The translations under genes and the position numbers were made by a program. A stretch of 62,108 nucleotides of DNA, counting the filler, from Dimorphilus gyrociliatus (taxonomy: Eukaryota; Animalia; Annelida), in the NCBI GenBank assembly GCA_904063045.1. It is 4 parts of 4 records of this genome, joined end to end, with 100 filler letters (N's around TTAATTAATTAA, not from the genome) between each part and the next. Parts side by side here need not be neighbours in the genome. Positions count along the whole stretch, not along the records: positions 18,111 to 46,938 come from CAJFCJ010000136.1; 3 more parts are not named here. One strand, written 5' to 3'. The notes below the pieces were generated by a model, which worked only from the letters and a program-made list of their open reading frames with translations, was not told the DNA's origin and searched no databases. Each line of letters begins with the position of its first letter. Within the stretch, counting starts at the first letter, position 1. Below, piece after piece: positions 3,132-58,489 of this stretch.

Positions 3132-5600
3132 TTATTCAAAAGCATTGCAAGTAATGCCCTCTCTCCAATCTTTTTCAGACTTAAGGTATTCCTCTTGTGT
3201 TGGATCTTGATTAGCTACTGACAATGCTAAAAGATAGATTGAAGTCAGCATATCACTAATTGCCAGAGAGAGACAGTAGATCCTAAATGACTTTTCAACT
3301 GATAACATGATATTAATATTTATTGAATTAGCATTTGCAAGAAAACCAAAAATTCCTTCAAGTATTGAAATTGGTATTAATTTATCACATGTATCAAAAT
3401 TTGATGGTTTTGGTGTGCAGTTGATATCATTCGAAATCAACTTATTAGCTAAACAGCAAATTGAAATTGTTCAATTTCAAAACATCCTTTAAAATGTTTT
3501 TAAAATGTTTAATTGGATGAGAAGTATTTAGCATGAGTAGTATTTTCAGATTTACAAAATTTTTAAATGAATTCTTTTCAATGTGATATAAAGTAATAAT
3601 AGAATTTAAATTGAGATGCTTTAAGTTCTTAAAATTTTTGAAAGTATTTTCCGAAATAGTCGTAATTTTACTAAAAGAAATATCTAGTGATAAAAGATTT
3701 AGACTTTAGATTTGAGCCAGGAAATATACATATTCAAAGGGATTATAGGACAAATTTAAGTTTTGCAACATAGGAAAAACTTGATTGTTTCTTAAAAAAT
3801 TCAAATTTTTTAACTCATTTTCAGAGAATTTTAAATGAACAGTGTTGCATAGATTCAAGAAATCCCACTGATGTAGATAAATATTTCTAGAAATTTCTAA
3901 ACTGAAAAGATTTCTTGCATTTAAATATGAATCTTTTTTAAAATTTCCAATGATTGATATTTCTTTGAAATTTGAATCAATAAACAATATATTTTCAAAA
4001 AAAAATTACGTGATTAAATGTTTTGAAGAATTCCAAAGTATAAATAATTTTTTAAGTGCAAAATTTGGAGTGATTAGTCATTTCGGGTACATTGCAAAAT
4101 ACTTCATCACTGGCAAACTTACAATTAACAATTAAGTTACATATTTTCTCATATGCTGAAAGTATGTTTTCATTTTTGCATTTATAAAATCCAAATGGTT
4201 GAAATTCTTAGAAATTAATCAACAAAATGGCAGTATTTCGTTTAAAGAATATGTATTGAGTAAATGAGTTTCTAGTTCTAAACAAGTAAGTTTAAACAAC
4301 CTGTTAACATTTAAAGAACTGAACTGACAAGCTGGGGAAAAGCATTTCCTTTTGTACATTTCCAAAGCTTGGGTTCAAGTGGTCAAAGGATTACAAAGTT
4401 GAAATCTGACGTTCTCATAATTCTCATGTAACAAAAATATGAAAGACTGTTATATCACACGTATAAAATATAATCCTAAGATTAGGGCCATATGTCAAAC
4501 ATGTGCCACAGTAAACAGGCCTGCCTCATCAGCATCTGGTGTTTGACCTGCATCTTTTCCATGTTCTTTGTTCCTTTGTTAATTCCCAAGTAGCCACCAT
4601 CTGTTACAGTCAAAGAGTCTATTTCTTACGAAATAGAGTTCTTTCTAAAGTACTAAAAGCTAACACTACGAAATAAAAGTCTTTCTAAAGTTCCACCACT
4701 ATAATTCCTATGAAATATAAGTATTTCTATAGTTGCACCAGTCTAATTCCTATAAAATACAAGTCTTTCTAATGTACCCTTATATCTAAAGTTTAAGTAT
4801 TGATATATCATTATATCTAAGTTCACACTTACCACAATCTAATTCATCATCTCCATTCAAACATTGATTTATTCTATCGCACAACAGTTCAACACCAATA
4901 CACATTCCTTCATAGAAACATTTACACTGACCTTTCCCACATGTCCTGTTAACGCAGATACTTCTTAGCTTTAGTGGATATCCTGTTAAAGTAGTTAGAA
5001 ATCCTGTTGAACTATATTTGATATTACAATAATCTAGATTTTCTTTAGAACAATTCTCTTGTTGGCAATATATTTCATCTTCATAATCTTTGCAGTTTTG
5101 TTTTAAATTACACTGAAGGCTCTTAGCAATGTATTCCTTTTCCTTAGTATAATAATTGCAGAGGCACTGTTTATCAGTATTATAATCTGTTGCCAAAAGA
5201 TTGTGTAGACTGTTATTATCATAGATTTTTCTATAAATATACTTGTCTTTTAAGAATCTTAAAAGATGTGATGGAATATTTGATTGTGAACTAGGTGAAG
5301 ATGAAAATGATTTCTTCTCTGAACAATCACAGCTATAAATTATATTTATGCATACGTTATTTGTTTCACATTGGAAATAGTTTTCAAAAGATTTTGGCTG
5401 TTTATTTGCCAAATGTGATCCCTCTGTGCAACAGAAAGGTAGATGTTATTTTTATGCATAGTAATATAATTTTTTGTCCTTGTTCAGTCAAACAAACTTT
5501 CAAACTGGTGACAAACTGTCCAAAAAATGTTAGTTCTACGTTGCAATGGTGTTATATATGAACTATACCTTTCATACTTTTCTGTCGCTTGATCTAGATA
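3132..5600 (-). pseudogene. LDLa-LRR-7TM receptor (GRL101/LGR-like), disrupted
   Basis: LDLa-like repeats (LLCDRINQCLNGDDELDC; QCNLKQNCKDYEDEIYC), LRR (LQNLNLSYNPF) and TM1-2 (LSLAISDMLTSIYLLALSVA...DWREGITC). Multiple stops and an inserted repeat. Confidence 0.7.
4205..4787. repeat. Unclassified ~580-bp dispersed repeat (inverted copy ~34222-34803; fragment ~37318-37430)
   Basis: Reverse-complement match such as CCTGCCTCATCAGCATCTGGTGTTTGAC vs 34465-34495. Shared terminus GTACCCTTATA. About 40-bp sub-repeats near that end. Confidence 0.75.
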
Positions 5601-9479: not shown

Positions 9480-9915
9480 TTTCAGAACTAGAACAGTAAA
9501 GGTTCTACTTGAACCATTAAACAATGCTAAACTTAAGTGGTTTATTCAAAATAAAAATACACTGAAGAAAGTAATTATATGAAAACTGGATATGGTAGAA
9601 AACGGCCACAAATCTATGGCTTTACCCTAATTCTAACCAAACCCTTGTTTTTGTTAACCTTTTTGAATACCCCTAACCCTCAGATAGGACACCCTAACTA
9701 CATATCAATAGCTATTATATTCCTCCTAATCATTTCCTAGCCCAAAATCCTACCTTGCAATTTTTCATCTATGGCCACTTTCAACCGGTCCCATGAAAGC
9801 TTAATAGCAGAGTAGATAGTTTGTAGTAGTTGCTTGCTAAATTGTCAAACTAGCATCTAATATGAATGGATAGAATTGTTGCCTTAAGAGAGTTATTTCC
9901 AGATGATCTTCTCAA
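9480..9915 (-). mobile_element. Old diverged LTR fragment related to the 635-bp gypsy LTR, split by a MITE
   Basis: GGTTCTACTTGAACCATTAAAC (about 9500) and ATAGCAGAGTAGATAGTTTGTA...TTTCCAGATGAT (9804-9908) are collinear with the solo LTR at 31304-31938 on both sides of the MITE. Confidence 0.65.
9588..9792. mobile_element. Mutator-type MITE, 205 bp
   Basis: TSD ATGAAAACT / ATGAAAGCT (8 of 9 match). Clearly homologous to 8098-8303. Confidence 0.8.
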
Positions 9916-10930
9916 ATTATCAGATGATTGGAAGAAAACAGTAAGAATTTATATACTCTTGGGCTGATTTCTAGCATCTATCCATCTCTACAGTTTGAGA
10001 ACTGTTTTAGTTGATACTTATCTTTAGTACAAACATATCACAAAGTCTAACAGTCGAGTTCTTTGTCTTTTACTAGGATTAATAAAATTATAACTTGGCT
10101 AAAAGTTATTTTACTAGGTATAATTTAATATGGCGTTGCTCTAGTCTAGTCCTATAATTGTTTCAAGAGTAATAAAAATATAACGAAAGCTGCACAGCCT
10201 CCCTTGCTCGAATAAACATGAGTGCTTTTATCTAGTTTGAAAAAAGTATTACTTCATGTTGTCTTTCTTCTTCATGATTTGGAAAAGATCAGATCTAAAA
10301 CGTCATTCATTAGATTCTGACTCTTTCAGGGTAAAATAAAAGATTTGAAAATACATATTACATAAAAGAGTTATAAACTTAAGCAATATAAATTGCATCA
10401 AGAGGTAAAAAGTCTTCTTACAAATCTCAAATCGTGCGTATTTCTTTATTAATAAACTACTTTCTATTATTGAATATTCTTCCTATCCAAACACTCCATA
10501 TTAGTCGTCCGGCTGATAATTAACTTCATAAAAAATTTCAACCACCAACAAATATTAACTTTCAACAACAATTATGGATATTCTCTATCTTAACTTGTGA
10601 AAATGTTAACAAAACGATTTCATCTAAAACTCAATGGAAATCCAACGAAGAGCCATCTATTGTTTAAAAAAAATTGAAAAAGAAGAAACAATAAACATAT
10701 GCGGATAATGAATGATAATTCAAAAAAAAAGAGTTTTGATGAGTTGAAATGATATCATGTAGAATTGAATAGAAGTTTATAATTATCTACTATAAGTAGA
10801 TAGGGGTAATTAGCTATACATATTTATAATTGATTTTATAGATATACAGTACACATATAAAATTTATATGTATATATATATATATATATATATGGGATAA
10901 GCGTAACGTATATAGAGTACAATTATTGTG

Positions 10931-12109
10931 ATGTATGCTACTCTTGTATTTTGGATTATCCTCTTCATTGTTCTAATAAGGACATTTGAATGGCTTATAA
11001 GATCATTCTATATAACTAATATCAACGATAAATACGTACTAATAACTGGATGTGACATGGGTAAAAATATTCCATATGCCTTGGCAAAGTGCCTGAGAAA
11101 TATTATCCTCCCTTTCTTTCTTTTCTCTCTTTACCTCTTTCCTCTTCATAATAGGTTTTGGGAATCTTTTAGCGAAGCGTCTAGACAGCAAAGGAATGAA
11201 TGTCATTGCCACTTGCCTAAAGGAATCTGGTGCTGAAGAATTGAACAAATCATGCTCAAACAAATTATCAACTTACGTTATGAACGTTACTAACGAAGAA
11301 GAAATTGATAGTCTGAGAGAGTTTGTTAAGGAAAAGGTTGGCGATAAAGGTCTATACGCATTGGTGAATAACGCCGGAATTGGTAGGAAAGGCTGCGGTT
11401 CACCAGAGACATTCATGATGAAGAGCTTGGTGGAGATTTTAAGCATCAATTCAGTAGCGCCGGCTGCTTTTTGCTTTAAATTTCTAGAACTGTTGAATAT
11501 GGGAAAAGGTAGAATCGTTAATATGTCGTCGATGGGTGGAAGAGTTCAAGACACAAACTTACTTTACGGTATATCTAAACACTGCGTTGAGGGTCTTTCT
11601 ACAATTTTAGGGTAATTTACTTTGAACAGCAAAACAACTTTGTTTTATAAAAAGAAAATGACAAACAGATATCTACTGAAGCAACAAAACTGGAATGTTT
11701 CTCTTCACACTCTTGAACCGGGAAGATTTTTGACGTCTATTCATCAAAAAGAGACGATTAATGAAGAAATTTTGGACAGTTATTCGAGAATTTCAAAATG
11801 GACAAAAGAAAAATATCCAACTGAAGAATTATACCTTGAAAAATGTACGAAAAACTTTATACAGAAACTGGAATGTCTAACTTTTTTCTTTTTTTCCTTT
11901 AATTAGTTATCAAACCATATAATGAATTTATGGCATCGGCATCAGAAAATTTACACGAGGTTATTGATGCATACGAACATGCTATCCTTTCAATTTGGCC
12001 TAAAAATCGGTATACAATTGGATTTTGGGAGAAGTATTTCATGATTCCCTTATCTTACATTCCAACTACAATTTCTGATTGTATTTTTCAAGAATTAAGT
12101 GATAAATGA
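10931..12109 (+). CDS. Short-chain dehydrogenase/reductase, retinol/17-beta-HSD (SDR9C)-like, 4 exons
   Basis: N-terminal hydrophobic anchor, TGCDMG|GFG, LVNNAGI, GRIVNMSS, YGISK, EPG. Introns 11061-11154, 11612-11668 and about 11845-11906 splice into an open frame ending in TGA at 12107-12109. Confidence 0.93.
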
Positions 12110-14990: not shown

Positions 14991-14996
14991 CTGCTC

Positions 14997-15198
14997 TTGG
15001 CCACACCCTAGGCAGGTTAATTAAATTATAACTTGGCCAAACCTTTATTGGTAATTAAAGATGAGCCTTCAAGCTGACTAATCAGACTTATGTTTGGCCA
15101 ATGTTATAGCATTTTCTTGCGTAGGTTTTAAGATGTACATGTATATGTTGCATAAAATAATAGAGTTCAAGCATGTAAAATATAACCAAAGTTGTACA
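14997..15198 (-). mobile_element. Truncated copy (U3 portion) of the gypsy LTR
   Basis: Near-identical reverse complement of 23667-23868, ending in TGTACA at 15198. Confidence 0.9.
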
Positions 15199-18010: not shown

Positions 18011-18110
18011 NNNNNNNNNNNNNNNNNNNNNNNNNNNNNNNNNNNNNNNNNNNNTTAATTAATTAANNNNNNNNNNNNNNNNNNNNNNNNNNNNNNNNNN
18101 NNNNNNNNNN
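18011..18110. other. Artificial scaffold spacer (N44-TTAATTAATTAA-N44)
   Basis: Identical 100-bp construct with stops in all six frames occurs three times. Confidence 0.97.
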
Positions 18111-18120
18111 TAAATTATTA

Positions 18121-20230
18121 ATTTACAGCCACCAGTGTTTGCAAATTCACTACTAAGCTTTGTTGCATTTTGTGGCTATTACAGAAAATTTATACAAGAT
18201 TTGCAAGAGTAGCTAAACCTCTGTATATGTTAATGAAACTACATGGGAAAAAGGATAAATTGCAATGGACTGAGGAAGCCAAGCAATCATTTTTCAAGTT
18301 GAGAGATGCAGTAGTTAACCCTCCTGTATTACAACTACCTGATTTTGCTAAAGATTTTCACTTAACAACAGATGCATCGAATGTAGCTGTAGGAGGAGTT
18401 CTTGAACAAGTTTATGTAGATGAGAATGGAAGAAAACAATGAAACCCATTGCCTACGCTTCAAAACAATTCAACAATAATCAAATGAAATATGCAGCCTA
18501 TCAAAAGGAAGCATTTGGGGTTTACTGGGTTGTAAAGAAATTTTTACATTACCTTCAAGACAAGCCATTCTTTTTATATACTGACCATCAGAGTCTAGTA
18601 CAAACATTTAAGCAAAACAAATTGAATGTCAGCACAGCAAAATGGGTCATGGCTTTAATGGATTTAAAATTTACAATTAACTATGTGACAGGACGAAAAA
18701 ATAGAGCAGATGCATTAACAAGATTAGAAGAATATACACCCCCAAGGAAAGTAACATTTGAAGAGCTAATTCATGGAAAGATCAAAAAGGAGAATTCTCC
18801 CTCTATTTCAGTTAAAATGGAACAGTATGAACATACACCAGAGTTAACTTTTGTAGCTACCAGTGATAACAGTGAAGAGAAAATTGATTTGTCTTCTGTT
18901 GACTTACAGTCAGAGCAAGAAAAAGATGTGAATTTAAAATCAATTAAAGAATATTTAACATTGGATGGTCAGCTACCTATTCCTTATTTTGGAACTTTTA
19001 CACCTTTCATAATGGAGATGTTTGTTCACAAGGAAATGATCTGGATTATCCTTGAAGAAAGAAACATTCTGGTTTTACCTGACCATTTGATGCTAACTCT
19101 GCTCCCTAAATTCCATAAAAATAAAATTCACAATCACCATGGACCCAGAATGACATTACAAATAATTACAAAGACCTTTTGGCACCCAAAATTAAAGATT
19201 ATGATTGAGAATTCAATAAAGGATTGCACTTTGTGTGAACAAATGAATGGTAGGAGTAGAGTATACCCTTTGGTAGAAACCTTTCACCCTGCATCACCAA
19301 TGGAGTTGGTAGCCATGGATATAATGGGACCCTTACCCATGGTTAAGTCATACAGATTCATACTTGTGATAGTGGATCATTTCAGTAGATACACAGTTTT
19401 ATATGCACTCAAACAGCAAACCAGTAAAGAAATTGCAAACCTTCTTTTCAACAGATTTTTCCCCATTTTTGGAATTCCAAAACAAATGTTGACAGATCAA
19501 GGAAGAAACTTTGTTGGTAAAGCTTTTAAAGAGTTTATGAAGGTATTAGGTATTGAGAAAATCCAAACAACAGCTTATAGAAGCCAGAGCAATGGACTAG
19601 TTGAACGAAGAAATAGAGAAGTGAGGAAGGAAATCAATAAATTAGTGGTGGAAGAAAATCAGCATAACTGGGTTGCAAACCTACCCTTGATTCAAGCATT
19701 TTTGAATCAATCACCTGTAGGAAGTACAAGACTACCACCCCAGGAACTTCTTTTTGGCACCAGCACAAGAACACTGATTGATGTAACAATGCATACTACC
19801 TCTCCTGAAACAAATGTACTATTTGTATTCAATCACCAGCAGCAATTAGTACAGTTAAGAGCTACAGCCTTCTGTAAATCCATCATGGCAAAAGAACAAT
19901 ATAGGAAAGAAAGAATAGAAATCTAATCTTCCAAAATATTTTGAGGTTGATGATGAAGTATTCTTAAGAAATGATGCTGCAAGAATTGCAATAACAAAAA
20001 TCCTTCTTTAAAATGGTTAGGCCCATACCGAATAACAAAAGTCATCATCAAAAGTGGATATATGAAATACAAATGGATGATAATACATGCAAGTTGGTAA
20101 TGGTAGCAGATTAAGACTAGCCAATGAATCTAATAAGTTGGAAACAAGGAAAGAAGCAACAACAATCTTCACCTTGTGGAGAAGGAATAACACACCTCCA
20201 ATATCTTTCTCAGGTAGAAGGAAGAAATGA
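18121..20230 (+). pseudogene. pol: Gypsy Pol: RT thumb, RNase H, integrase (HHCC, DDE, GPY/F); several 1-nt frameshifts
   Basis: FCGYYRKFI; TDASNVAVGGVLEQ...PIAYASK...YTDHQSL; HHG...CTLC; AMDIMG, LTDQGRNF, SNGLVER. The GPY/F domain (FEVDDEVFLR, KWLGPYRITKV, YEIQ) is frameshifted at 19920-20130. Confidence 0.95.
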
Positions 20231-20256
20231 CTTCCAATTCCGTTGAAGAATCAAAA

Positions 20257-20560
20257 AGGCAAGAAGTCATTGCCTTGTGTGACACAGGAGCATTGAGATC
20301 CTTTATTACTGAAAAAGAAATCAGTTAATGGATGTTACAATTATGGATAAAGAAACAATTGCTTACCAATTATAACTTCAGCTGATGGGAAAGCTTTAAA
20401 GCAAAAAGGAAGCGTAAAGCTGAATATCCAATTTGCTGGAGAAAGTATGAAACAAGAATTTATAGTTATGGAAAATCTAGACATAGCAATAATACTTGGT
20501 TGTGATTTCCTACAAACTGTGGGAGCAAACCTCAATTTTGAAGCTAAACAGTGTTCTCTC
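20257..20560 (+). CDS. Retropepsin (A2 aspartic protease) downstream of integrase; C-terminal half in frame with the env ORF
   Basis: RQEVIALCDTGALRSFITE (D at 20281), then across two 1-nt shifts LPIITSADGKALKQKGSVKLNIQFAGESMKQEFIVMENLDIAIILGCDFLQTVG. Confidence 0.88.
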
Positions 20561-23500
20561 AAATTTGATAGAAGGAAAGGGAACCTGGCTGAAAGAATAA
20601 GGCAACCTCAACTAAACAAAGTCACTATAGCCATGATGGGACAGCATGACTCTTCATCAGAAAGTTCAGATAGTGATGACTCAGAGATGGAAGTTACTAA
20701 TTCTGATACTGGTTATGACACAAGCAATACTTTCAAAACAGACAGTAATTACAGTCTCAATGAACCTTCAAGCTCATCTGAAAGTGATGACACAGAAACA
20801 AATAATGAACTGGATCAAAATACAGATTCAGAGGCAAACATTATCTCTGATAGAGAAGATGAAATATCTAGTTCAGACGATGAGTCAATAATTATTGAAA
20901 GCGAAATTATTGATATAACCCATTCGGATAATGAGTCAATAATTATTGAAGGTGAAATTATTGACATAACCCATTCAGATAATGAGTCCCTCATAGTGGT
21001 AGATTCATCCCAAGATGAGAAAGAAAATACAAGTGACACAGACAATGAGTCAGTCATATTTTTAGATGAGACTAAAATCATCTCTGAACAATTAGATTCC
21101 CAACAAGAAGTGGAACCACAATATATAGAGTTAGAAGATGGAATAACTATCAGAGTGGAACAACAACACAAAACTTTCAACCATTCAACTATAGCCAACA
21201 CAGGAAGAGCTAACATGAAACAGATGTTGTGGCTTCCACTAATGATGACTGTAATGGTGATCTGTGGCTGCATCCACTCAATAACAGTCCCAAAACCATC
21301 CTACCAAGGTGCCCATGTTACAAGTGCAAACATTACCTTAACATTTAAACCACCGTTATACTTTTGTTCTAACCAACTACCAAGCCAGGCATTTGATCTA
21401 GCAGATGAGCCAACTTGTAATATAGAATCACAAGAAACCAAGACAATTACAGCTGATATCTATGAATTGAACTTGGAAGAAATTGAAACAAGAGCAGTAA
21501 AATGTCAAGTGTATCTAAGAACTAATTTTTACACTTACTATTTCTTTGGAGCAAAGAAGAGGAGGATTGTTAACTCAGTTATCAAAGTAACTCATGATCA
21601 ATGCAGACAGATGATAAAAGACAAACGATCTTTTCAAGGAAAACCTTTAATGATGAAAAGAAACACTTGGATCCACCAAGATCAGTTTCCTGCTGCCTAC
21701 ACATGGCCAACAACGACCAAGGTGCTGGAATACACCACAATTATCCAGTTTGGCAAAGCATATTGGCAACCTCCTAATATGAAAATTACAACTAATCTGG
21801 ACTACCTGGAAGATTGTTTACCAGGGCAGTCCTATTGTGAGACAGAAGAGGCAATTATTGTCTTTAGAAACCTCAAGAATAATTACACACTTGGGCAACA
21901 ATCACCATGGATAAAAATTAGCAACAGAATTAGTTGTATCAAATTTGCTGGTCACTATTCTTGTCCAGGGTATTCTATTCTGGACATCCCTTATCAAGAT
22001 AAGTTTATTGATGGAATTGGTGGTCCTGGAACAAAAGTACTAGTACCACTGGAGGAACAGAGTTTAATACAGGAAACAAGCAAGGAACACCTATACAATT
22101 TGCTACAATATCAGAAGATTGGCAAAAATGAAGAAAAACGACTATTAAACTATCCCAATAAAGTTAAAGAACAAATTATACTATACAAGCGAAACAACCC
22201 CTTACCAAGTCTTAACCAATGGTACAGAGAAACAAACACAAAGTATAAACTAATGAGAAATAAAGGCACACTCAAGGAAGTTGTGATATATCATCTACAA
22301 CAACCCATTAGTCCATCTTACTGGGAGCTGGATAACTATTATATCCAAGAAATGCTGCAAGCAGTCAATTGGACAAGGGCAACAAGACAATCTGTGACGA
22401 TTTCAAAATATGTATACAGTGAGAAAAGAATCAAAAAGAAGGTATTACCAACATTGGGCATATGGTATAAAGGACCACCAGCCAGAGAATTTAAGATTAC
22501 CTATGAAGGAATTTATTTTACTCTACACATGAGAATGGCTAAAAAGCAGATGAAGAAGGAAGCAAAACTGAAACATAAGATAAGTAAAAACCCATACCAC
22601 AAATTCCCATTGGAAATGAGAGAAGCTGCCCAAACATCTACCTTACTACATGGTATTGATTCAAATTTTAAGAATTTAAAAAAGTTTACCCAACAGCTGT
22701 CAAGTCTTCTCTGCAATCAATTTGTTCAAAGAAGCAGAATGATGGCATTACTAGCAAATTTGGATCCTCAATTGACCACAGTGTTAACAAATGAGTTGGG
22801 AATGCACAGTAGTCAGATGGGAGAATTAGCTATAATTAAACAATGTTCACCAATAGCCTCAACAGAAGTAGTTTGTGACTTAAGCATGATAAAAAAGAAT
22901 AACAAATGTTCTCAATTTTTACTTGTCACCATGAACAACCTGCTTTTCCAAGTAGAACCAGTTACTCATGTTTTACAGCAAGTCAATCCTGAAGAGATTA
23001 CCTATAATGAGTGTAAGTCTAACAAGTTATTCTACAAAACAACTCACAACCCATTAAATCCTATAAGAAACCAACCAATGAAAGACAAAACGTATGTGTA
23101 TTATTCAGAAAGAGGATGCAGATTTCACACTGTGTCTGCAAAATCCATGCAGTTACATATCCACAATCACCTTTCTGAACCAAAAATTGAAATTGCCAGA
23201 TTAGCTGATCTACTCCACCATGGGGTAAAGAAGGATATTGCATACCAGCACTCAAAAATTAAGCAAGTTATCAGTTCACTGGAACAGAAGCAGGCAAGGT
23301 ATGATAACATGGTCACTGTTGCAGAGAAAAATGGCATTGTACCCAATTTATCTGGAATTAAACAGTTTTTCCATAGTTGGTACTATAAACCTGGGAAAAC
23401 ACTTTATGTTATCATACGAAATATTTGTTTGAGTATTGTAGTGTCAATGGTATGTATCATCATTTTCAACTATATTATTGGAAGAAGAAAACAAAGAGAA

Positions 23501-23635
23501 GAAATTGCTACCCCAAGTGAGAGCACAGATAACTCTCCTGAAAACCCAAAACTAATGAAACAAAGTTGTAGCTTTAGTCAACATCAAACTAATGAAGAAG
23601 AACAACCACCTGTAATTCTCATTAAATCAAGATGA
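20351..23635 (+). CDS. env: Env polyprotein: protease half, acidic leader, signal peptide, class III (herpesvirus gB-like) fusion glycoprotein, TM, tail
   Basis: Open frame from 20351 (first ATG 20447). Signal peptide MKQMLWLPLMMTVMVICGCIHS at 21215. Cys-rich ectodomain with RATR furin-like site (22376-22387). LCNQ...LANLDPQ...GELAIIKQCSP resembles gB domain III. TM ICLSIVVSMVCIIIFNYIIG followed by RRK. Confidence 0.85.
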   Translation, partial: RNNCLPIITSADGKALKQKGSVKLNIQFAGESMKQEFIVMENLDIAIILGCDFLQTVGANLNFEAKQCSLKFDRRKGNLAERIRQPQLNKVTIAMMGQHDSSSESSDSDDSEMEVTNSDTGYDTSNTFKTDSNYSLNEPSSSSESDDTETNNELDQNTDSEANIISDREDEISSSDDESIIIESEIIDITHSDNESIIIEGEIIDITHSDNESLIVVDSSQDEKENTSDTDNESVIFLDETKIISEQLDSQQEVEPQYIELEDGITIRVEQQHKTFNHSTIANTGRANMKQMLWLPLMMTVMVICGCIHSITVPKPSYQGAHVTSANITLTFKPPLYFCSNQLPSQAFDLADEPTCNIESQETKTITADIYELNLEEIETRAVKCQVYLRTNFYTYYFFGAKKRRIVNSVIKVTHDQCRQMIKDKRSFQGKPLMMKRNTWIHQDQFPAAYTWPTTTKVLEYTTIIQFGKAYWQPPNMKITTNLDYLEDCLPGQSYCETEEAIIVFRNLKNNYTLGQQSPWIKISNRISCIKFAGHYSCPGYSILDIPYQDKFIDGIGGPGTKVLVPLEEQSLIQETSKEHLYNLLQYQKIGKNEEKRLLNYPNKVKEQIILYKRNNPLPSLNQWYRETNTKYKLMRNKGTLKEVVIYHLQQPISPSYWELDNYYIQEMLQAVNWTRATRQSVTISKYVYSEKRIKKKVLPTLGIWYKGPPAREFKITYEGIYFTLHMRMAKKQMKKEAKLKHKISKNPYHKFPLEMREAAQTSTLLHGIDSNFKNLKKFTQQLSSLLCNQFVQRSRMMALLANLDPQLTTVLTNELGMHSSQMGELAIIKQCSPIASTEVVCDLSMIKKNNKCSQFLLVTMNNLLFQVEPVTHVLQQVNPEEITYNECKSNKLFYKTTHNPLNPIRNQPMKDKTYVYYSERGCRFHTVSAKSMQLHIHNHLSEPKIEIARLADLLHHGVKKDIAYQHSKIKQVISSLEQKQARYDNMVTVAEKNGIVPNLSGIKQFFHSWYYKPGKTLYVIIRNICLSIVVSMVCIIIFNYIIGRRKQREEIATPSESTDNSPENPKLMKQSCSFSQHQTNEEEQPPVILIKSR
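20873..21000 (+). repeat. 51-bp (17-aa) coding tandem repeat SDDESIIIESEIIDITH / SDNESIIIEGEIIDITH / SDNESL
   Basis: Units start at 20873, 20924 and 20975. Confidence 0.9.
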
Positions 23636-23651
23636 AGGGACTCATCTTCAC

Positions 23652-23665
23652 AAAGAAGGGGGAAG
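23652..23665 (+). promoter_or_regulatory. Polypurine tract
   Basis: AAAGAAGGGGGAAG immediately before the LTR TG start. Confidence 0.85.
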
Positions 23666-23666
23666 T

Positions 23667-24301
23667 TGTACAACTTTGGTTATATTTTACATGCTTGAAC
23701 TCTATTATTTTATGCAACATATACATGTACATCTTAAAACCTACGCAAGAAAATGCTATAACATTGGCCAAACATAAGTCTGATTAGTCAGCTTGAAGGC
23801 TCATCTTTAATTACCAATAAAGGTTTGGCCAAGTTATAATTTAATTAACTTGCCTAGGGTGTGGCCAAGTTATAATTCAATTAACCTTCCTAAATGTTGA
23901 ACCTTGTAACATCCTGTTACTAAAGATAAATATGAACTACACATTTTGGCAACTGTAAAGTGATGATTGGATGTCAGAGACAAACCTCAAAGTATATAAA
24001 TCCTTATTATTCTCATTTGGCATGCAGCTTCCATCTGGACCCAAGGACCTGGGAAAATCATCTGGAAACAACCTCCACTGGAACCATCCATCTACTCCTC
24101 AACATTGGAAGACAGTTTGGTAATTTGGCAACCTGCTTTTACAAACTATCTACTCTGCTATCGAACTCTCATATTGTTACTTGCTTAAGTATTATTATTG
24201 CGAATAAACCGTTTTAATTTAAACATTTGTTTAAAGGTTCGAGTAGAACCAGTATTGTTATAACTTGCAAACGCATAGATTTTGCCAGCAAGAGCAGTAC
24301 A
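23667..24301 (+). mobile_element. 3' LTR, 635 bp, TGTAC...GTACA
   Basis: Same length as the solo copies. 36-bp tandem repeat at 23826-23897, TATATAAA near 23994 and AATAAA near 24203. Confidence 0.95.
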
Positions 24302-25380: not shown

Positions 25381-26629
25381 ATGAATGGAGTTGATCTTGT
25401 CTATAGAAGAATCAATGATCCGAGATATATGATTTCTGTATTTGTTAAGAAACTGCTGATTTTTAGACAAAAAGCAAATTGTCCACTTACAGATGGACCC
25501 AGACCATTGAATCTGGGAACACAAAATGGTAGACAAGTAATCAATGCATTTTAATCATTGAAGCGTTTCACTACCTCGATGGATGACCCTACAAATACAG
25601 GTGGAGATGATTGGATGGATTGGGATCAGACATTTTTATGGACAAAGAAAGATATTGCAACAAGGTCTCGCCATGCAGTTGGATTGGCTGGTGTTGGAGA
25701 AGTCTGTACAAAAAAGGGCTCGTCAATTAATGAATATATTGGTATGAGCTCTTGGAAAATTGCTGCTTATGAGCTTGCTCATAATCTTGGATCCTATCAT
25801 GATGGATCACAAACTAGTGCTACCTGTGGATCGAATAATCAATAAATTATGACACTTGCAATAGGCTCTCTTGATGTTGTCAATATCAGAAATTCTTTTG
25901 TATTTAGTCAATGTACAACTGACGCTATCTCTGACGTTGTTAATGGAAATAATTATCAAGGATTTCCAAGAACCTGCCTTATGAACAAAGTATGCAGTAA
26001 TGATGCATTCAATCATGATGAAATCTCTAGCGATGACAAACTTCCAGGTGTTAAATATTCATTGACTGAACAATGTGTGTTGAGACACGGTAATGGAGCT
26101 GTTCACAAGCCAGAGCTAATGTTTGTTGATGTCTCACTTGTAAGAAGAGAAATGCTTGCCATAGTCAAGACCCAGGAGCTGCGGATGGAAAGAGTGTAGC
26201 AGTAAGGGTTTGACCAGGGCCAATAGTCAAGCAATGATCTCAAATTCACCTTGCGACCCAAATCCTTGTAGGAATAGTGGTGTATGTTGTCAATACGGCA
26301 GTTCAGCTTATGTATGTGAATGTCCTGTAGGACGTGGCGGAAAGGATTGGAATAAAAATGAAAATGAAGGTGCACCTGCTCCAGACCAGCCTATAGTTCC
26401 AACTCCTCGTGTTCCAGGTCAGCCTAATGCTTCAACTGCTACTGTTCTAGATCAGCCTATAGTTCAAACTGTACCAACACCAGCCTGCACAGATCGAGAT
26501 ATTACATTTAACGTGCTTGGTTCAAATGGTAGAGAAACAATAGGTTGTAGTGATGGAGCAATGAGATTTGGAAAACCATTTTGCAATTCAATGGGAAATT
26601 ATTGCTGTCAATCATGCAGTAATGTTTGA
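25381..26629 (+). pseudogene. Reprolysin (M12B/ADAMTS-like) metalloprotease with EGF, Pro-rich and ShK-like C-terminus
   Basis: MNGVDLVYRR... with an in-frame TAA at 25552. AAYELAHNLGSYHDG (HExxH with H to Y); LPGVKYSLTEQC; CDPNPCRNSGVC...CECP; CTD...C...C...CCQSC. Confidence 0.8.
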
Positions 26630-28399: not shown

Positions 28400-31035
28400 G
28401 GGGTTGACAGAAAATGTCCATGAAAGAAAACGTCCATTAAAATAAATTTCATTTAAATATAAATATGTGTTGAAAAAGTAAACCTTTGGTAAAAGAATAT
28501 GTTAAACATATAATTAATAAATGAAATATTCACAAAAAAAATCACTTAACTTTTCCTATTAGCTTAATTTTTTAGGAATTATATTTCCTTATGGAGTGAA
28601 AGAAAATGTCCATAAAGTGAAAGAAAACATCCATAAAGTGAAAGTAAACGTCCATAAAGTGAAAGAAAACGTCCATACAGTGAAAGAAAATGTCTATAAA
28701 CTAAAAGTAAATATCCATGAACTAAAAGAAAACATAAATAAAAATAAATTTCATTTAAATGTAAATCTATATTGAAAAACAAGTTAATAGAAAACTTTTC
28801 ATATATACAACTTTAGGTTTACCATATAAATTGTTTATTGATTATTTGTAAACAACTTTAAAAGAAAGACAAACTTTTTTCAAGTTTTACAATTAAATGA
28901 CCAGTGTTTTCAAGTAAAGTTTTTTGATATCAAGGTATTGTCAATTATTTTCAATAATATAATTCTGAGCAAAGCTGCAGAAGCTGGTTTGCATTAATTT
29001 CACCTGTTTTAAAATTTTCCCAAATTAAGAAAAGATCTTTTTGAATTTGGCTATAAGTCTTCCTTAAAAGCTTTTTGTACAGATTTATCATGTCTGCTTC
29101 CCTCTTTAACTCATCAATCACTAAATAAAAAGAAACATTTTCTCCAACAATTTTATTCAGCCTTTGATGATAACCTTCCAGATCATTATTTGTCCTTATG
29201 CTTTGATCAAAAACAGACCAAGTCTCTGGAGACCAAAATGTATTTTTTATCCAACTATTAGACACATAGTCCAACAAATCAGACAGTTTATTTTCTTTTG
29301 TCAGTTGATTTTGAATTTTAGTGAATTGATTTTCAATCATGCCATGAGGCAAATATGGCAAAGACATAATCATTCTCCTGGATTCCCAAGCTCCCTCTTT
29401 TTTTCTAAATTCCCTGCTATAACCAAGTTCCTTAAACAAAAAAATATTAACTGGATTGTTAAAAATTTTAGAAATCAATAAACCTGAATTTTTCTAAATA
29501 TTGCCTGAGACCAGTGAAATGAACATCCAGTCAAGACAGCATCAGGCCATATATTTTGTAAAGTTTTCCAAACAGCCTTTTCATAGTCTAAGACTATTTT
29601 CTTAGGAGCACAATTTTCAGCTAAATCCTTCACAGCCTTAAAAATTTAACATGATTGCTTATTAGTAAGTATATTTATGAAATGTAATTCTTACCTGGAA
29701 AAGTAGTTTATATGCTCTCTTTTTTTTAGAAGAACTTGCTTAAGCTGTCCATTTTTTTTCAAAAATACATGAATAGAGTACATTTGAATGAAAGGTTCAT
29801 TGGCAATCTTAAAAGTACCATCAAGGTACCAAATTTTCCCCTTTGACAAAAGCTCCAATTGATGATTTGTTGCAAAGATAATGATCCTCTCATTATTCAT
29901 ATTTATATCCTTCTTTAAAAATTCAGGAGGAATGAATGTCATATTCAGCTCAAAGTTTTTATCATTGGGTACAATAGGCCTGTTCTTCCTTCTATTCCAA
30001 TTTGCCACTTCTTTACAATTAATTATATTTGATATAGATAACCTCAATTCTTCTGTGAACTCTTCAGTACTCTTTTCTTGTCCTTGATTATTGTCTCCTT
30101 TCTCATCAATTTTTAATTTTTCCTCAGTCATGCTGTTATTCTCCTCAATATTCTTTTCTGGATATTCAACAATTGCTTCTTCCTTCTCATTAAGTTTTGC
30201 AGTAGAATTACTTTTTATTGGTACACTTTCCCTGCATTTTTTTGGTTCATCAATTCTCTTTAACATCACAAAACAGGTTTTTTTAGTTATTTTATAACAA
30301 ATAAAACAGAGTGGTGATGCTGTTGATGAATCTGGAAGAAAAAAAAACAGTAAATGTTTTTCAAATAGAAGATAGTACAAACCATGCAGACATTTTATAT
30401 GACAAATATGCAGGCACAATGAGCATTGGCCTTTTATTTGCCTACCAACAAATTTATCATTGCAAATAGAACACTTGTCCATTATTCAATATTTTTTCTA
30501 AAATATTGGAGAAAAAGAAGAGTTAAACTAAAATTAATAAATGAATTTGTCATATTATTATGATTATTTATGTAACAATTAGTATTTTGACAAAAACATT
30601 GAGAAAAAACTTCATTAACAAATAAAATTGCTAAATTTATGTTAGATTGATTATTAATAAAATAATCAATAACTTTTTAATCACAGAGATTATTAAGAAC
30701 AAAAAAACCTCAAAAAATTAAAAATTTCATATTACCTCAAGAGAGTGAAAATAGAAGAGGAAGTTGATGTTTTGTATCTCTTTTCCTGAAGATTTCTTCA
30801 TTTCTACCAGTTTTTTTAAAGTTTTGTGTTAATTTGTTTTTCAACATATATTTATATTTAAATGAAAATTTCTTTATTTTATGTGTTCTTTTGATTCATG
30901 GATGTTTTCTTTCAGTTTATGGACGTTTTCTTTCACTTTATGGACATTTTCTTTCAGTTCATGGACGTTTTCTTTCAGTTTATGGACATTTTCTTTCATG
31001 GATGTTTTCTTTCATGGACGTTTTCTGTTGCATCC
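28400..31035 (-). mobile_element. Mutator-like (MULE) DNA transposon, 2.6 kb, with subterminal 21-bp repeat arrays
   Basis: Ends GGGGTTGACAGAAAATGTCCA and (rc) GGATGCAACAGAAAACGTCCA. Arrays of GAAAGAAAACGTCCATAAACT-like units at ~28594-28735 and inverted at ~30893-31025. No TSD. Confidence 0.9.
28951..30482 (-). CDS. MULE transposase with N-terminal PHD-type finger, intron-containing, one frameshift lesion
   Basis: C4HC3 pattern after removing a 51-bp intron; WYLDGTFK; IVLDYEKA; GCSFHWSQA; RTNNDLEGYH. Confidence 0.9.
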
Positions 31036-33484
31036 GTTTTGTAGTTATCTCTTTTATATTAGACATATCTTATTACATGAATAAAATATTACACATCTTT
31101 TTTTCTAATTTTTCATATTTTCATTCAAATATTAAACCATTCTTCATATAAAAAATTGCTGTGGATGTTTTCTCCTAAGCTATGGACATTTTCTCCTGTG
31201 GACAGTTTCTCTTGTGAACATTTTCTCCCTAAACTGTTTTTTATACGTGAACACTTTTTAAGTAAAGTGGCTAAAGAATCACAAAAGTATTCATATTAAA
31301 TAGTGTACTGCTCTTGCTGGCAAAATCTATGTGTTTGCAAGTTATAACAATACTGGTTCTACTCGAACCTTTAAACAAATGTTTAAATTAAAACAGTTTA
31401 TTCGCAATAATAATACTTAAGCAAGTAACAATATGAGAGTTCGATAGCAGAGTAGATAGTTTGTAAAAGTAGGTTGTCAAATTACCAAACTGTCTTCTAA
31501 TGTTGAGGAGTAGATGGATGGTTCCAGTGGAGGTTGTTTCCAGATGATTTTCCCAGGTCCTTGGGTCCAGATGGAAGCTGCATGCCAAATGACAATAGTG
31601 AGGATTTATATACTTTGAGGTTTACCTTTGACATCCAATCATCACTTTACAGTTGCCAAAATGTGTAGTTCATATTTATCTTTAGTAACAGGATGTTACA
31701 AAGTTGAACATTTAGGAAGGTTAATTGAATTATAACTTGGCCACACCCTAGGCAAGTTAATTAAATTATAACTTGGCCAAACCTTTATTGGTAATTAAAG
31801 ATGAGCCTTCAAGCTGACTAATCCGACCTATGTTTGGCCAATGTTATAGCATTTTCTTGCATAGGTTTTAAGATGTACATGTATATGTTGCATAAAAGAA
31901 TAGAGTTCAAGCATGTAAAATATAACCAAAGTTGTACAATAGTATTGAGTTAAGTCTACAGTTTTCTAAAAGAACATCTATATTGAACTAAAGTGCACAA
32001 ATTTCTACCACAATTACATTTTTTAAGACTATTTGTGAATAAAATGGATAGGTTCTATTTGGACCAATACTTTGGTAAGTTGGTAAATAATTAGGAAGAA
32101 TGATTACAGTTGTGACAAACCAGAAATCCCTGCAAGTACAATACAACAAAGTACACACACGGAAAAAACATTTTCATTAAAGCAACAATTAATAAATTGC
32201 TTTGGTTTTGTTACTTTCATAAACCAAAATATGATTCCTTGAAGTTGAATTGTGGACTGTCAACTAAAGAGGTACAATTAATAGTTCACAAGATAAGATA
32301 TCACAATTACAATTGTAATAAGCAAGTTTTGGCATTACCATGTTTTTTAAAACAAGAGAGGTTAGAATTTCAGATACTGTAACCTCTATTGAAATATTAA
32401 AAGTACAGAATAGTGGGGACTGGTCAAAAACAGCCATAAATGAAATATATGAAGTTTAGATTTCAAGCTGGGAAATGGTTAGGAGGAACAAGATAAGTAT
32501 TGATATGTACTTAGGTGGGTCCCATCTAAGGGTTAGGGGCATTGAAAAAGGTTAGGCAAAAGCAAGGGCTAGGTCTTTAGTGCTTAAGGGATTAGCACAA
32601 TCAGTACAGATTGATAACCTCACAATTGCACTCACACTTCTAACCTTGTTAGGCTAAAGGTTGGTATGGCTGTTTAGGAATTGCTATAAAAAGTAGCTCT
32701 TCCTAGCCTAAGCTATTACTGTATCTCCAACAAACACCAGATACAGATTCTCAACACAGGTGAAGAGAACCTGCATTGCAATAATATAACAAAATCTCCA
32801 AGAAGTAAAGGGATAAAATATAATTGAATGGTGAGAATTATTTGAGGGGTATAAAGTCAATTTGAAGGCAGCATAATTACCTTTACCTTGCCTATTTAGC
32901 TGGTTGAGTTTAATATCCTCATTTTATTCAAAACAGACACAAATATTTTTTTCTTAGTTTATTGGACAGTGTAAGAGCTTGACCTAAATTAAAAAGATAA
33001 GAATATTATACAATGCTAAAAAATGTTTTTGTAAGGCTAATTTTAAAGGGTAATCAATAACATTTTGTATTAAAAAATTTTGGATTATAATAGAGAAATA
33101 GAGATAGAACCCTCATGAAGAGGAAGATAAATAAAGAGAAAGAAAGGACTTCAAGTACAAAGCTGGCATCCAAGTGAAACATAACAGTATTATAGACAAC
33201 AATACAGAAAGCCTTGAAAGAAAATGGGAGGGAAATTTAAAAATTTAAAAATTTAAAAATAGATTTAGGTCCAGTCTTACTAGTTTCTGGCATGCTTTAT
33301 TTTTTTTTGGCCTCTGTCACCTTGAGTATATTTGGTGTATGTTGAAAATTATTCTATATTTGCATATGATAGGTCTCAATTTTAGAAAAGTGAGACATCA
33401 GACAAAGGAATCTAAAAGAACATTTCCTGCATTTGAAGTGAAGCATGTCAAACCAGTTTTTCAGGTCTTTTAGTTGGCCTACAT
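31036..33484 (+). repeat. Segmental duplication copy A (copy B 43409-45763)
   Basis: Near-identical over ~2.4 kb, including the solo LTR and a truncated MITE (32415-32573). Copy B lacks 33334-33425 at an ATTT microhomology. Confidence 0.95.
31304..31938 (-). mobile_element. Solo LTR of the env-bearing gypsy family, 4-bp TSD ATAG
   Basis: 635 bp, TGTAC...GTACA, ATAG at 31300-31303 and 31939-31942. Confidence 0.95.
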
Positions 33485-40618: not shown

Positions 40619-42860
40619 GGATGCGACAGAAAACGTCCATGAAAGAAAATGTCCATAAACTGAAAGAAAACGTCCATGAACTGAAAGAAAATGTCCATAA
40701 AGTGAAAGAAAACGTCCATAAACTGAAAGAAAACATCCATGAATCAAAAGAACACATAAAATAAAGAAATTTTCATTTAAATATAAATATATGTTGAAAA
40801 ACAAATTAACACAAAACTTTATAAAAACTGGTAGAAATGAAGAAATCTTCAGGAAAAGAGATACAAAACATCAACTTCCTCTTCTATTTTCACTCTCTTG
40901 AGGTAATATGAAATTTTTAATTTTTTGAGGTTTTTTTGTTCTTAATAATCTCTGTGATTAAAAAGTTATTGATTATTTTATTAATAATCAATCTAACATA
41001 AATTTAGCAATTTTATTTGTTAATGAAGTTTTTTCTCAATGTTTTTGTCAAAATACTAATTGTTACATAAATAATCATAATAATATGACAAATTCATTTA
41101 TTAATTTTAGTTTAACTCTTCTTTTTCTCCAATATTTTAGAAAAAATATTGAATAATGGACAAGTGTTCTATTTGCAATGATAAATTTGTTGGTAGGCAA
41201 ATAAAAGGCCAATGCTCATTGTGCCTGCATATTTGTCATATAAAATGTCTGCATGGTTTGTACTATCTTCTATTTGAAAAACATTTACTGTTTTTTTTTC
41301 TTCCAGATTCATCAACAGCATCACCACTCTGTTTTATTTGTTATAAAATAACTAAAAAAACCTGTTTTGTGATGTTAAAGAGAATTGATGAACCAAAAAA
41401 ATGCAGGGAAAGTGTACCAATAAAAAGTAATTCTACTGCAAAACTTAATGAGAAGGAAGAAGCAATTGTTGAATATCCAGAAAAGAATATTGAGGAGAAT
41501 AACAGCATGACTGAGGAAAAATTAAAAATTGATGAGAAAGGAGACAATAATCAAGGACAAGAAAAGAGTACTGAAGAGTTCACAGAAGAATTGAGGTTAT
41601 CTATATCAAATATAATTAATTGTAAAGAAGTGGCAAATTGGAATAGAAGGAAGAACAGGCCTATTGTACCCAATGATAAAAACTTTGAGCTGAATATGAC
41701 ATTCATTCCTCCTGAATTTTTAAAGAAGGATATAAATATGAATAATGAGAGGATCATTATCTTTGCAACAAATCATCAATTGGAGCTTTTGTCAAAGGGG
41801 AAAATTTGGTACCTTGATGGTACTTTTAAGATTGCCAATGAACCTTTCATTCAAATGTACTCTATTCATGTATTTTTGAAAAAAAATGGACAGCTTAAGC
41901 AAGTTCTTCTAAAAAAAAGAGAGCATATAAACTACTTTTCCAGGTAAGAATTACATTTCATAAATATACTTACTAATAAGCAATCATGTTAAATTTTTAA
42001 GGCTGTGAAGGATTTAGCTGAAAATTGTGCTCCTAAGAAAATAGTCTTAGACTATGAAAAGGCTGTTTGGAAAACTTTACAAAATATATGGCCTGATGCT
42101 GTCTTGACTGGATGTTCATTTCACTGGTCTCAGGCAATATTTAGAAAAATTCAGGTTTATTGATTTCTAAAATTTTTAACAATCCAGTTAATATTTTTTT
42201 GTTTAAGGAACTTGGTTATAGCAGGGAATTTAGAAAAAAAGAGGGAGCTTGGGAATCCAGGAGAATGATTATGTCTTTGCCATATTTGCCTCATGGCATG
42301 ATTGAAAATCAATTCACTAAAATTCAAAATCAACTGACAAAAGAAAATAAACTGTCTGATTTGTTGGACTATGTGTCTAATAGTTGGATAAAAAATACAT
42401 TTTGGTCTCCAGAGACTTGGTCTGTTTTTGATCAAAGCATAAGGACAAATAATGATCTGGAAGGTTATCATCAAAGGCTGAATAAAATTGTTGGAGAAAA
42501 TGTTTCTTTTTATTTAGTGATTGATGAGTTAAAGAGGGAAGCAGACATGATAAATCTGTACAAAAAGCTTTTAAGGAAGACTTATAGCCAAATTCAAAAA
42601 GATCTTTTCTTAATTTGGGAAAATTTTAAAACAGGTGAAATTAATGCAAACCAGCTTCTGCAGCTTTGCTCAGAATTATATTATTGAAAATAATTGACAA
42701 TACCTTGATATCAAAAAACTTTACTTGAAAACACTGGTCATTTAATTGTAAAACTTGAAAAAAGTTTGTCTTTCTTTTAAAGTTGTTTACAAATAATCAA
42801 TAAACAATTTATATGGTAAACCTAAAGTTGTATATATAAAAAGTTTTCTATTAACTTGTT
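40619..42860 (+). mobile_element. Second MULE copy, inverted relative to the first, 3'-truncated
   Basis: Reverse complement of 28778-31035 minus one 16-bp repeat unit. Transposase at 41156-42687 has the same ORF translations. Confidence 0.95.
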
Positions 42861-43408
42861 AATAGCATAATCCATTTTTGGTGATAATTGTTGTATCACA
42901 CACTACTTGAACTGATTTTAATTCTGTACAAGTATTTAAGGTTGTTAGATCACCAAGCCATGTACTGTGCATTCCATGCTTAGATCCAAGTATTGTTGGT
43001 AGTTGAGGTGCCAATGGTGTAATGGAGTAATGCTCTAATTGGACCAGTACTTTGGTAAATTGATAAATGATTAGAAAGGACGAATACTGTTCTGAAGAAG
43101 CAGAAATTCCTACAATTACAATACAACAAAGTACACTGTCTATCAACCAAATCAAAAGAATGGGCTCTATATTGGAAAAAGGAGTTAAGATAACAGATGA
43201 ATAAGTAAGCATTGATGCTATCACTGAGAATGATGTTGTTAATAATGGTTCAGATGTTGAAAAAAATGGAAAACAAAACGATGAAGACATCACACAAGTT
43301 GTGGGAAATAGTTATGTTATTGTTCAAAACAATTATACAGAAGCTATGATTGGGTGTAACATTGAAATAACAACAGAAATTGAATTCATATTCTGGCAGC
43401 TAATATAT

Positions 43409-46938: not shown

Positions 46939-47038
46939 NNNNNNNNNNNNNNNNNNNNNNNNNNNNNNNNNNNNNNNNNNNNTTAATTAATTAANNNNNN
47001 NNNNNNNNNNNNNNNNNNNNNNNNNNNNNNNNNNNNNN
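46939..47038. other. Artificial scaffold spacer
   Basis: N44-TTAATTAATTAA-N44. Confidence 0.97.
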
Positions 47039-56399: not shown

Positions 56400-56757
56400 T
56401 ATATAAGCAAGATATACTAAAACTGACATTTTACTGAATGATGGATATTCTTTTGTTTTTAAACATAAAACATCATCAAGTACTATTTTGGTATGCAGTG
56501 TGAGAAGTAAGAAGAAAAGTTGTGTGGCCAGAATAAGACAAAATGGAAATTTATCTCTCAAAGGCAATTTGGAACATAATCACAACAGAAAAAAGAATTT
56601 AAAAGTGGATATTAAAGTGAAAACAGATTTAAAAATTGTTTGCAGAAGTGATAATCAAACATCTGGAAGAAGTACCGCTGAAAAAGTTGTTCTGTCCTAT
56701 GAACCCAATGCTACTTGTCTTCCTGACATCAGCTATTTAAAGAGAATAGCAAACTAA
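56400..56757 (+). pseudogene. FLYWCH-type zinc finger, probably a MULE remnant
   Basis: LLNDGYSFVFKHK...LVCSVRSKKKSCVARI...EHNH. Confidence 0.6.
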
Positions 56758-57310: not shown

Positions 57311-58110
57311 TGTTCATTTGTTCACAAAAAGTACAATCCTGTATTGAATTCTCAATCATGATCTTTAATTTTGGATGCCAAAAGGTTTTTGTAATTATTT
57401 GTAATGTCATTCTGGGTCCTTGATGATTGATTGTGCATTTTATTTTTATGGAATTTTGGGATCAAAATTAGTATCAACTGGTCAGGTAGAACTAAGATGT
57501 TTCTTTTTCCCACAACAATCCATATCGTTTCATTGTGAACAAACATGTCCATTACAAATGGGGTAAAAGTTCCAAAGCAGGGGAGAGGTGGTTGTCCATC
57601 AAATATTAAATACTCTTTAATTGATTTTAAATTGATATCTTTCTCTTGTTCTTATCTTCATAATCATTTCCAGAAGCCACAACTAATAGATCTTGTGTGT
57701 GTTCATATACTTTCATTTTCACTGAGGTAGGAAGAGGCATTTCCTCCTCAGTTTTCCTTTGAACTAGATCTTCAAATGTTAGGCATTTGTATGAATTCAA
57801 ATAAGCCAAAAGGTGTCTTGAATGCTGTTTTAGGCCTATCTTCTTCCTTGATATTAATATGGTGGTATGGACTTGTCAAATCCATTATAGAAAAGAAGTT
57901 ATTTCCTCCTCCCAGATGATCAAATAGACCCTCTTGATTTGGCAGTGGATACTTGTTCTTGATAGTCATGTTGTTGAATTTTCTGTAATCTACACACATT
58001 TGTAGACTACCTTCCTTCTTTCTTGCAAAGATAATTGGTGAAGCCCAGTGTACACTTAGAAATAGTGGTAACCATAACCCTAACTCAGTTTCATTTTGAT
58101 AAATTCCCCT
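57311..58110 (-). mobile_element. pol: Internally deleted gypsy pol remnant, sister of the env-bearing element
   Basis: WASPIIFARKKEGSLQMCVDYRK...KTAFKTPFGLFEFIQMP is fused at ~57781 to TFEDLVQ...FHKNKMHN...QDCTFCEQMN, which is homologous to 18752-19250. Confidence 0.88.
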
Positions 58111-58389
58111 TCGATTTGTCATTAAATCATTATGTCTGTGCACATACATTCTTCAGCTCCGTTCTACAGAAAAGTTGCTGAAATAGTTGCAAAATCACTT
58201 TGAAGGTTCCATTCTTAAATAAAATTTTTGTTCGTTTCCTTAAATATTAAAGTTAAGTTGTAAATTGCAATATTTAGCTTAAAAATATGTTGCCGTGCCT
58301 TTCTGAGGCACCAGCCTATGCAAAAGTAGGTCAAGCCTTCTCATCTGTGCAATTAGTACAGATATACAAGACAATATCTCCCAAGTTCC

Positions 58390-58489
58390 NNNNNNNNNNN
58401 NNNNNNNNNNNNNNNNNNNNNNNNNNNNNNNNNTTAATTAATTAANNNNNNNNNNNNNNNNNNNNNNNNNNNNNNNNNNNNNNNNNNNN
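58390..58489. other. Artificial scaffold spacer
   Basis: N44-TTAATTAATTAA-N44. Confidence 0.97.

Follow-up and report, generated by a model that had tools for sequence, protein, structure and literature searches.

Positions 18111-24301 of the window (the whole 62,108-nt stretch of DNA that was analysed) contain the 3' part of an envelope-carrying Ty3/gypsy copy in Dimorphilus gyrociliatus, the element lying to the right of the gap at 18011-18110 (Table 1). The order RT end, RNase H, Integrase_H2C2 and rve given by the Pfam matches is the Ty3/gypsy arrangement, in which integrase follows RT and RNase H, and many of the best matches to the RNase H-integrase region are named gypsy polyproteins with 26-35% identity. 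RT is represented within 18111-24301 by no more than its last ~45 codons; the RT core falls behind the gap. KWLGPY at 20011 matches a tail profile built from 116 other pols (E 0.002 among local pieces), and the piece before it matches the same integrase-tail profile weakly. The sequence-only reading had proposed the order RT-RH-IN-PR-leader-Env. Its succession of integrase, protease, linker and Env is real, but the RT core lies outside 18111-24301 and the "leader" is no novel Env leader, as discussed below.

The element displays the hallmarks of the Ty3/gypsy group: TG...CA LTRs, a polypurine tract, a tRNA primer site in contigs assembled from short reads and a 4-nt target-site duplication at solo LTRs. 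The primer site (PBS) was seen only in the contigs of runs X1-X3 and nowhere in the window, where the sequence to the left of the gap yielded neither a 5' LTR nor a primer site. In an X1 contig (record 1), the LTR end is followed by 2,488 letters that begin with the primer site and lead to position 18119. Because this contig bridges the two points, the complete element is ~9.3 kb long, with a span of 9,306 nt in the measure of the window and about 9.32 kb in contigs. The translated LTR is 85% identical to part of the gene model DgyrCDS14789. A stretch at 9793-10052 is 66% similar to the LTR of the present family and probably represents the LTR of a related one. Three identical artificial spacers, each a 12-nt all-frame stop flanked by a run of N on either side, occupy 18011-18110, 46939-47038 and 58390-58489; two of the three adjoin pieces of the present retroelement family.

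Table 1. Features of the retroelement and its relatives, in window coordinates
Feature	Position	Strand	Basis
RT end (thumb/connection) and RNase H start	18119-18442	+	Pfam RT_RNaseH_2, E 6e-15; contigs extend upstream of 18119
RNase H end, bridge, integrase zinc finger (19078-19248) and DDE core (19294-19581)	18424-19926	+	Pfam RT_RNaseH, Integrase_H2C2, rve
Integrase C-terminal GPY/F module, in several frames	19900-20110	+	tail profile; three-frame translation
About 45-50 unassigned codons between integrase tail and protease	20110-20259	+	frames fragmented in window
Retropepsin, halves broken apart in window	20260-20545	+	profile, HHalign, RVP_2 (E 0.008), P0008 alignment
Acidic Ser-rich linker with 51-nt tandem repeat	20645-21172	+	composition; homology of linker end
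Met and hydrophobic stretch, predicted internal Env signal peptide	21215-21283	+	hydropathy; env relatives
Class III fusion glycoprotein (gB / rhabdovirus G type)	21284-23635	+	ESM features, PDB profile matches, Foldseek
C-terminal transmembrane helix of Env, then tail	~23399-23485	+	predicted
Polypurine tract	23652-23665	+	sequence
3' LTR, 634 nt, TG...CA	23667-24300	+	sequence
Solo LTR, same family, 4-nt target-site duplication	31304-31938	-	617/635 identical
Solo LTR, sequence context that of the 31304 copy (in duplicated segment)	43677-44311	-	sequence comparison
Partial LTR (first 203 nt)	14996-15198	-	99.5% identity
Decayed relative with internal deletion: RT N-terminal part and bridge/integrase piece	57313-58152	-	RVT_1, E 4e-7; 85% identity to 18912-19247

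A retropepsin behind the integrase

The motifs CDTG (20278-20289), SADG (20378-20389) and ILGCDFL (20492-20512) all lie 3' of rve and KWLGPY. When a retropepsin profile made from other gypsy proteins was run on the complete set of 2,633 stop-to-stop pieces from the window, the C-terminal half of the protease ranked first (E 1.1e-8) and the N-terminal half second, with a weak match (E 0.11). HHalign gave the C-terminal half 96.9%, and within the protease the alignment of the natural paralog P0008 passes from one window frame to the next. Motif coordinates, profile and HHalign thus agree with the earlier proposal of a retropepsin with intact CDTG behind the integrase GPY/F domain. The proposed sharing of a frame between the second half of the protease and Env was likewise borne out: the stop-free frame at 20351-23635 (1,094 codons) comprises the protease C-terminal half, the acidic linker, the signal peptide and Env, so that about 290 codons upstream of Env are open and in frame with it.

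The gypsy comparison set comprised the 120 best among 433 long gypsy polyproteins that match the integrase, and the retropepsin profile had itself been built in part from these proteins. In 102 of them the protease was found before the integrase, in none after it, and in 18 it was not detected. In a gypsy profile comparison, P0055 and P0058 showed the domain order PR-IN-RT, which we take to be that of the Gmr1-type gypsy elements. These elements resemble the present one in that gypsy pol domains can be reshuffled, but there it is the integrase that has changed place, and the protease still comes first. The 17 matches of a full HMMER search included no intact IN-PR or PR-Env fusion protein. A word-indexed protein search yielded no match with the PR-Env ORF as query and P0003 alone with the env alignment as query, and neither the metagenome scans nor one viral-contig scan revealed a related locus.

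Short reads were used to examine the order at the DNA level. Five public runs from two studies (X1-X5) each hold 81-86% of the sampled window words; a sixth listed run contains almost none of them. The window may itself derive from runs of study P1, but X5 belongs to the other study and to another year. Single contigs of X1 (19357-22575), X2 (19479-22221) and X3 (18119-22640) span the integrase, the protease and the start of env. A contig of X5 (18119-21155) crosses integrase, protease and linker, with a deletion inside the protease, and a contig of X4 likewise crosses these three. In all five runs, which stem from two studies, the contigs show the order integrase, protease, linker and Env as far as they extend, so it is no misassembly. 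An assembly chimera in an error-prone window might be suspected from the adjoining scaffold gap and the many one-letter errors of the region, but in view of these contigs, with X5 coming from a separate study, a chimera is scarcely credible.

Compared with the window, the spanning contig of X3 shows 13 one-letter gaps, 12 of which are listed. All 12 are letters missing from the window, and 10 of them fall within 19.9-20.35 kb; 11 were found in all four runs compared and the remaining one in three, the only runs in which that stretch is present. The frame breaks had been attributed to 1-nt assembly slips and a check of 19900-20360 against short reads had been suggested. The contigs supply the missing letters, the same ones in run after run, and support the attribution. 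The number of one-letter gaps between frame anchors is compatible with one continuous integrase-protease frame, which we infer for the element. The main contigs of X4 and X5 are without 58 window bases (20309-20366) directly after the catalytic motif, so that some copies probably have a crippled protease; the deletion, judged from gap counts, appears to keep the frame. X4 and X5 also share several substitutions that are not in X1-X3. The shared substitutions and the 58-base loss together indicate that two variants of the element segregate or coexist.

The envelope and its lineage

The Met at 21215 is followed by a hydrophobic stretch, a cysteine-rich ectodomain and a transmembrane helix, and the env relatives P0004, P0006, P0012 and P0017 also start with a hydrophobic stretch. 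Clusters of rhabdovirus/Monjiviricetes glycoproteins ranked at the top in the comparison of ESM features (0.95), and the homolog P0006 (E 5e-36) lies above the Pfam cut-off for the rhabdovirus fusion domain. The env family profile matched PDB entries weakly (E about 0.01-0.03), with glycoprotein entries in the fusion domain and Epstein-Barr virus gB centrally. The alignment-based model of Env, calculated from 13 sequences, was used for the fold class alone because it is partial (pLDDT 52), and a single-sequence AlphaFold model (pLDDT 35) was left unused. Foldseek aligned the partial model with herpes gB at E 5e-8 and with rhabdo-like G at E 9e-11, the TM-scores being low. Env is a class III fusogen. 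More distant class III env relatives (P0006, P0007 and P0017) are encoded on contigs of 4.9-9.5 kb.

Four named relatives, all of them D. gyrociliatus gene models, are among the 17 matches of the full search, and one of these models includes a nearly identical LTR in translated form. The commonest transposon of this worm is Dingle (Dinophilidae Gypsy-like elements), like the present element a Ty3/gypsy LTR element of D. gyrociliatus with a gB-like env downstream of the integrase (PMC7854359). An element catalogued as Annelida_Polychaeta_Dgyr_errantivirus_1 has an HSV/gB-type env, LTRs of about 631/636 nt, a span of 9,315 nt and 7 copies with >98% identity, and is listed with a chromodomain in supplementary file 4 (PMC13524379). 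Its 12-nt PBS is identical to that of the element studied here, whose LTRs measure 634/635 nt and whose span is 9,306 nt. A new enveloped lineage had been suspected from the sequence; however, since PBS, LTR length, the 9.3-kb span, env type and host fit a published family, the lineage is not new. The element is likely Dingle / Dgyr_errantivirus_1, matched by PBS, lengths, env type and host and not by sequence. In the eLife table the ORF of Dgyr_errantivirus_1 is labelled "GAG-POL" and other entries "GAG-POL-ENV" (PMC13524379), which hints that Env may be a separate ORF in that element.

A position of the protease after the integrase was not found in the searchable text of either paper. The Dingle text and its five supplements (PMC7854359) do not mention the element's protease, their one match to "protease" being a reagent, and Extended Data Fig. 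3d may picture the order. The text of PMC13524379 contains "protease" once, in a generic scheme PRO-RT-RH-IN, and no post-integrase protease. Figures, the sequence repository of the authors, Repbase and subscription journals may have it.

Origin and role of the protease

The linker consists of 31% D+E and 19% S. Its end shares 59% identity with the part of P0015 that runs into RT, with a score of 152 compared with 96 for the best of 1,000 shuffles and at most 47 for other fetched proteins. P0015 (DgyrCDS14407) and X2 record 15 belong to a sister Dingle family in the same host, whose protease, acidic linker, integrase and env tail are homologous to those of the present element. At the DNA level, the X2 contig of this family contains the protease, 727 letters, the linker-end match and then the P0015 peptide leading to RT. 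Because both P0015 and the X2 contig run the linker into RT, the sister family has the canonical order PR-linker-RT. In the present element, by contrast, the homologous module runs into the Env signal peptide, and the similarity to the sister module stops at 21168, shortly before the signal-peptide Met. Judged by this homology, the linker is the ordinary PR-RT linker of the sister family and not a novel Env leader. Linker length varies: in a diverged subfamily (X4 contig, record 23) 102 linker bases within 20645-21100, corresponding to the two 51-nt repeats, are missing. Identity to the named paralogs amounts to 58% for the protease, 59% for the linker end and 42% for the integrase region. As the identity of the module is no lower than that of the integrase, it fits long residence and not recent nesting. 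Parsimony, based on the sister family and on the 0 of 120 polyproteins with a post-integrase protease, makes the canonical position the ancestral one.

These observations suggest that the protease and the acidic linker moved as a module from before RT to between integrase and Env and that the protease is likely the ordinary maturation protease, a proposal to which we assign an even chance. According to this model, the element would encode one long polyprotein of Gag, RT, RNase H, integrase, protease, acidic linker, signal peptide and Env. Targeted to the ER by the internal signal peptide, the class III ectodomain would be released by the signal peptidase of the host. The domains upstream of the signal peptide would remain in the cytosol, where protease dimers would cleave the Gag/Pol junctions, and the acidic linker could serve as a spacer between Pol and the membrane anchor. 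Env is predicted to be a type I membrane protein, the domains ahead of it all being cytosolic. With such a topology, predicted from the signal peptide and the terminal helix, the protease could not reach the ectodomain, and ordinary Gag-Pol maturation from the new position would therefore be its simplest role. A more far-reaching version, in which the only active protease of a recently multiplying errantivirus resides at the far end of Pol in a single Gag-RT-RH-IN-PR-Env polyprotein, has a somewhat less than even chance of being correct.

The 5' block of 2,488 letters between the LTR and 18119 shows no listed match to the protease or the linker at 80-85% likeness. If this block held a sister-type module, by an estimate from lengths about 560 nt would remain for PBS, leader and gag, and the block is too short for such a module plus gag. 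It may, however, encode an active protease of more divergent sequence. Its length would fit gag and a ~100-residue protease without a linker, as demanded by a scenario with two proteases, in which an active canonical protease precedes RT and the post-integrase copy is accessory, trimming the Pol-linker junction or serving merely as a spacer. The seemingly frame-keeping deletion in the downstream protease of X4 and X5 would agree with such an accessory copy. The only proxy for the pre-RT region is P0013, a related gene model of a decayed copy; like P0015 it was predicted automatically and may be spliced or broken. Its pre-RT part has a protease-like C-terminal motif and gives retropepsin-like named matches in ESM (0.90-0.93, with low shared counts of 84-112). 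Arguing against an active protease there are the absence of D-T/S-G from the 200 residues of P0013 that cover the pre-RT region, an HHalign comparison with retropepsin that lacks significance (3 of 60 shuffles score higher) and the position of the motif, 46 residues ahead of the RT-start point compared with a median of 171 in 22 other pols. Moreover, the downstream protease has kept its catalytic motifs intact despite ~40% divergence from its paralogs. The decayed copy at 57.3-58.4 kb has ~300 nt upstream of RT with similarity neither to the protease nor to the pre-RT part of P0013, and this stretch is therefore uninformative. On balance, two proteases seem unlikely.

In the alphavirus polyprotein a protease precedes an internal signal sequence, which in turn is followed by a glycoprotein. 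With this precedent in mind, the sequence-only reading had left the choice between a relocated sole protease and a second one dedicated to Env; the first is favoured by the homology to the pre-RT module of the sister family and the second fares poorly. An Env-dedicated protease would free Env in the manner of the alphavirus capsid, possibly from a subgenomic PR-linker-Env message, and the single stop-free frame of protease C-terminal half, linker and Env would suit it. However, alphaviruses combine a cis-acting serine protease, that of the capsid, with class II fusogens, whereas profile and HHalign identify the protease studied here as a retropepsin and not as a chymotrypsin-like serine type; retropepsins are homodimeric aspartic proteases, and the fusogen is of class III. 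Protease and internal signal sequence are ~220 residues apart, unlike the directly adjoining alphavirus-type arrangement. The predicted topology sets the protease opposite the ectodomain behind an internal signal peptide, an R-x-K/R-R (furin) site occurs nowhere in the PR-Env ORF, rhabdovirus G-type fusogens require no priming cleavage, and the linker is that of the sister family's PR-RT junction. The "GAG-POL" label in the eLife table (PMC13524379) would agree with a separate ORF for the remainder; even so, a dedication to Env is highly improbable. The same label leans slightly towards a spliced env message from 21215. Such a message is part of another scenario, in which a fragment of another Dingle family was caught as a passenger between integrase and env in one recombination and is tolerated because Env translation begins at Met 21215 of a spliced RNA. 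The end of the sister similarity at 21168 just ahead of the Met, the AG dinucleotides at 21193-21194 and 21202-21203, the protease deletion variant in X4 and X5 and the further subfamily with a shorter linker (X4 record 23) could all be accommodated. A passenger is nevertheless improbable, given the about 290 codons that have stayed open in frame with Env, a divergence from the sister module that is deep and not recent, and the recurrence of the order in five runs from two studies.

If the relocated protease is the only active one and part of a single polyprotein, the element has a pol domain order that was not found reported for LTR retroelements, and the canonical sister family in the same genome provides a natural control. 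The protease-first order of pol is regarded as conserved in retroviruses, Ty3/gypsy and BEL elements (PMC12440569); a multi-copy element that carries the protease at the end of pol would demonstrate that this position can change. Tethered to the membrane anchor of Env, the protease would couple maturation to envelopment, which raises the testable question of how a protease anchored beside Env forms dimers and controls when particles mature. Since both orders occur in sister families of a single small animal that can be cultured, they could be compared directly. A precedent for the single polyprotein proposed here is Atlas virus, a BEL/Pao element with a single Gag-Pol-Env polyprotein and a captured viral fusogen (PMC9094657). 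The Env of this belpaovirus is class II and phlebovirus-like, whereas the present Env is class III in a Ty3/gypsy element, and the passages of PMC9094657 on Atlas virus do not mention a protease after the integrase.

Among the other features of the window is a 2.2-kb inverted duplicate (28778-31013 / 40625-42860, 99.8% identical) that is bordered by 21-nt tandem repeats and contains a transposase-like frame. It is presumably MULE-like by motif; a Pfam search gave no match to a MULE family. A 2.3-kb direct duplication (31036-33346 / 43409-45716, 99.5% identity) includes a solo LTR and may be a haplotype or assembly duplicate. A sister-family env fragment (42865-43023, minus strand, 57% to P0005) lies beside a duplicated segment. 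A DNA transposon at 1273-2943 has inverted ends of ~249 nt and contains a DDE_3 transposase frame. Host-like frames at 4786-5445, 47428-49303, 11097-11615, 25846-26629 and 56407-56757 represent LDL-A, LRR, a short-chain dehydrogenase, ADAMTS/EGF pieces and a FLYWCH finger.
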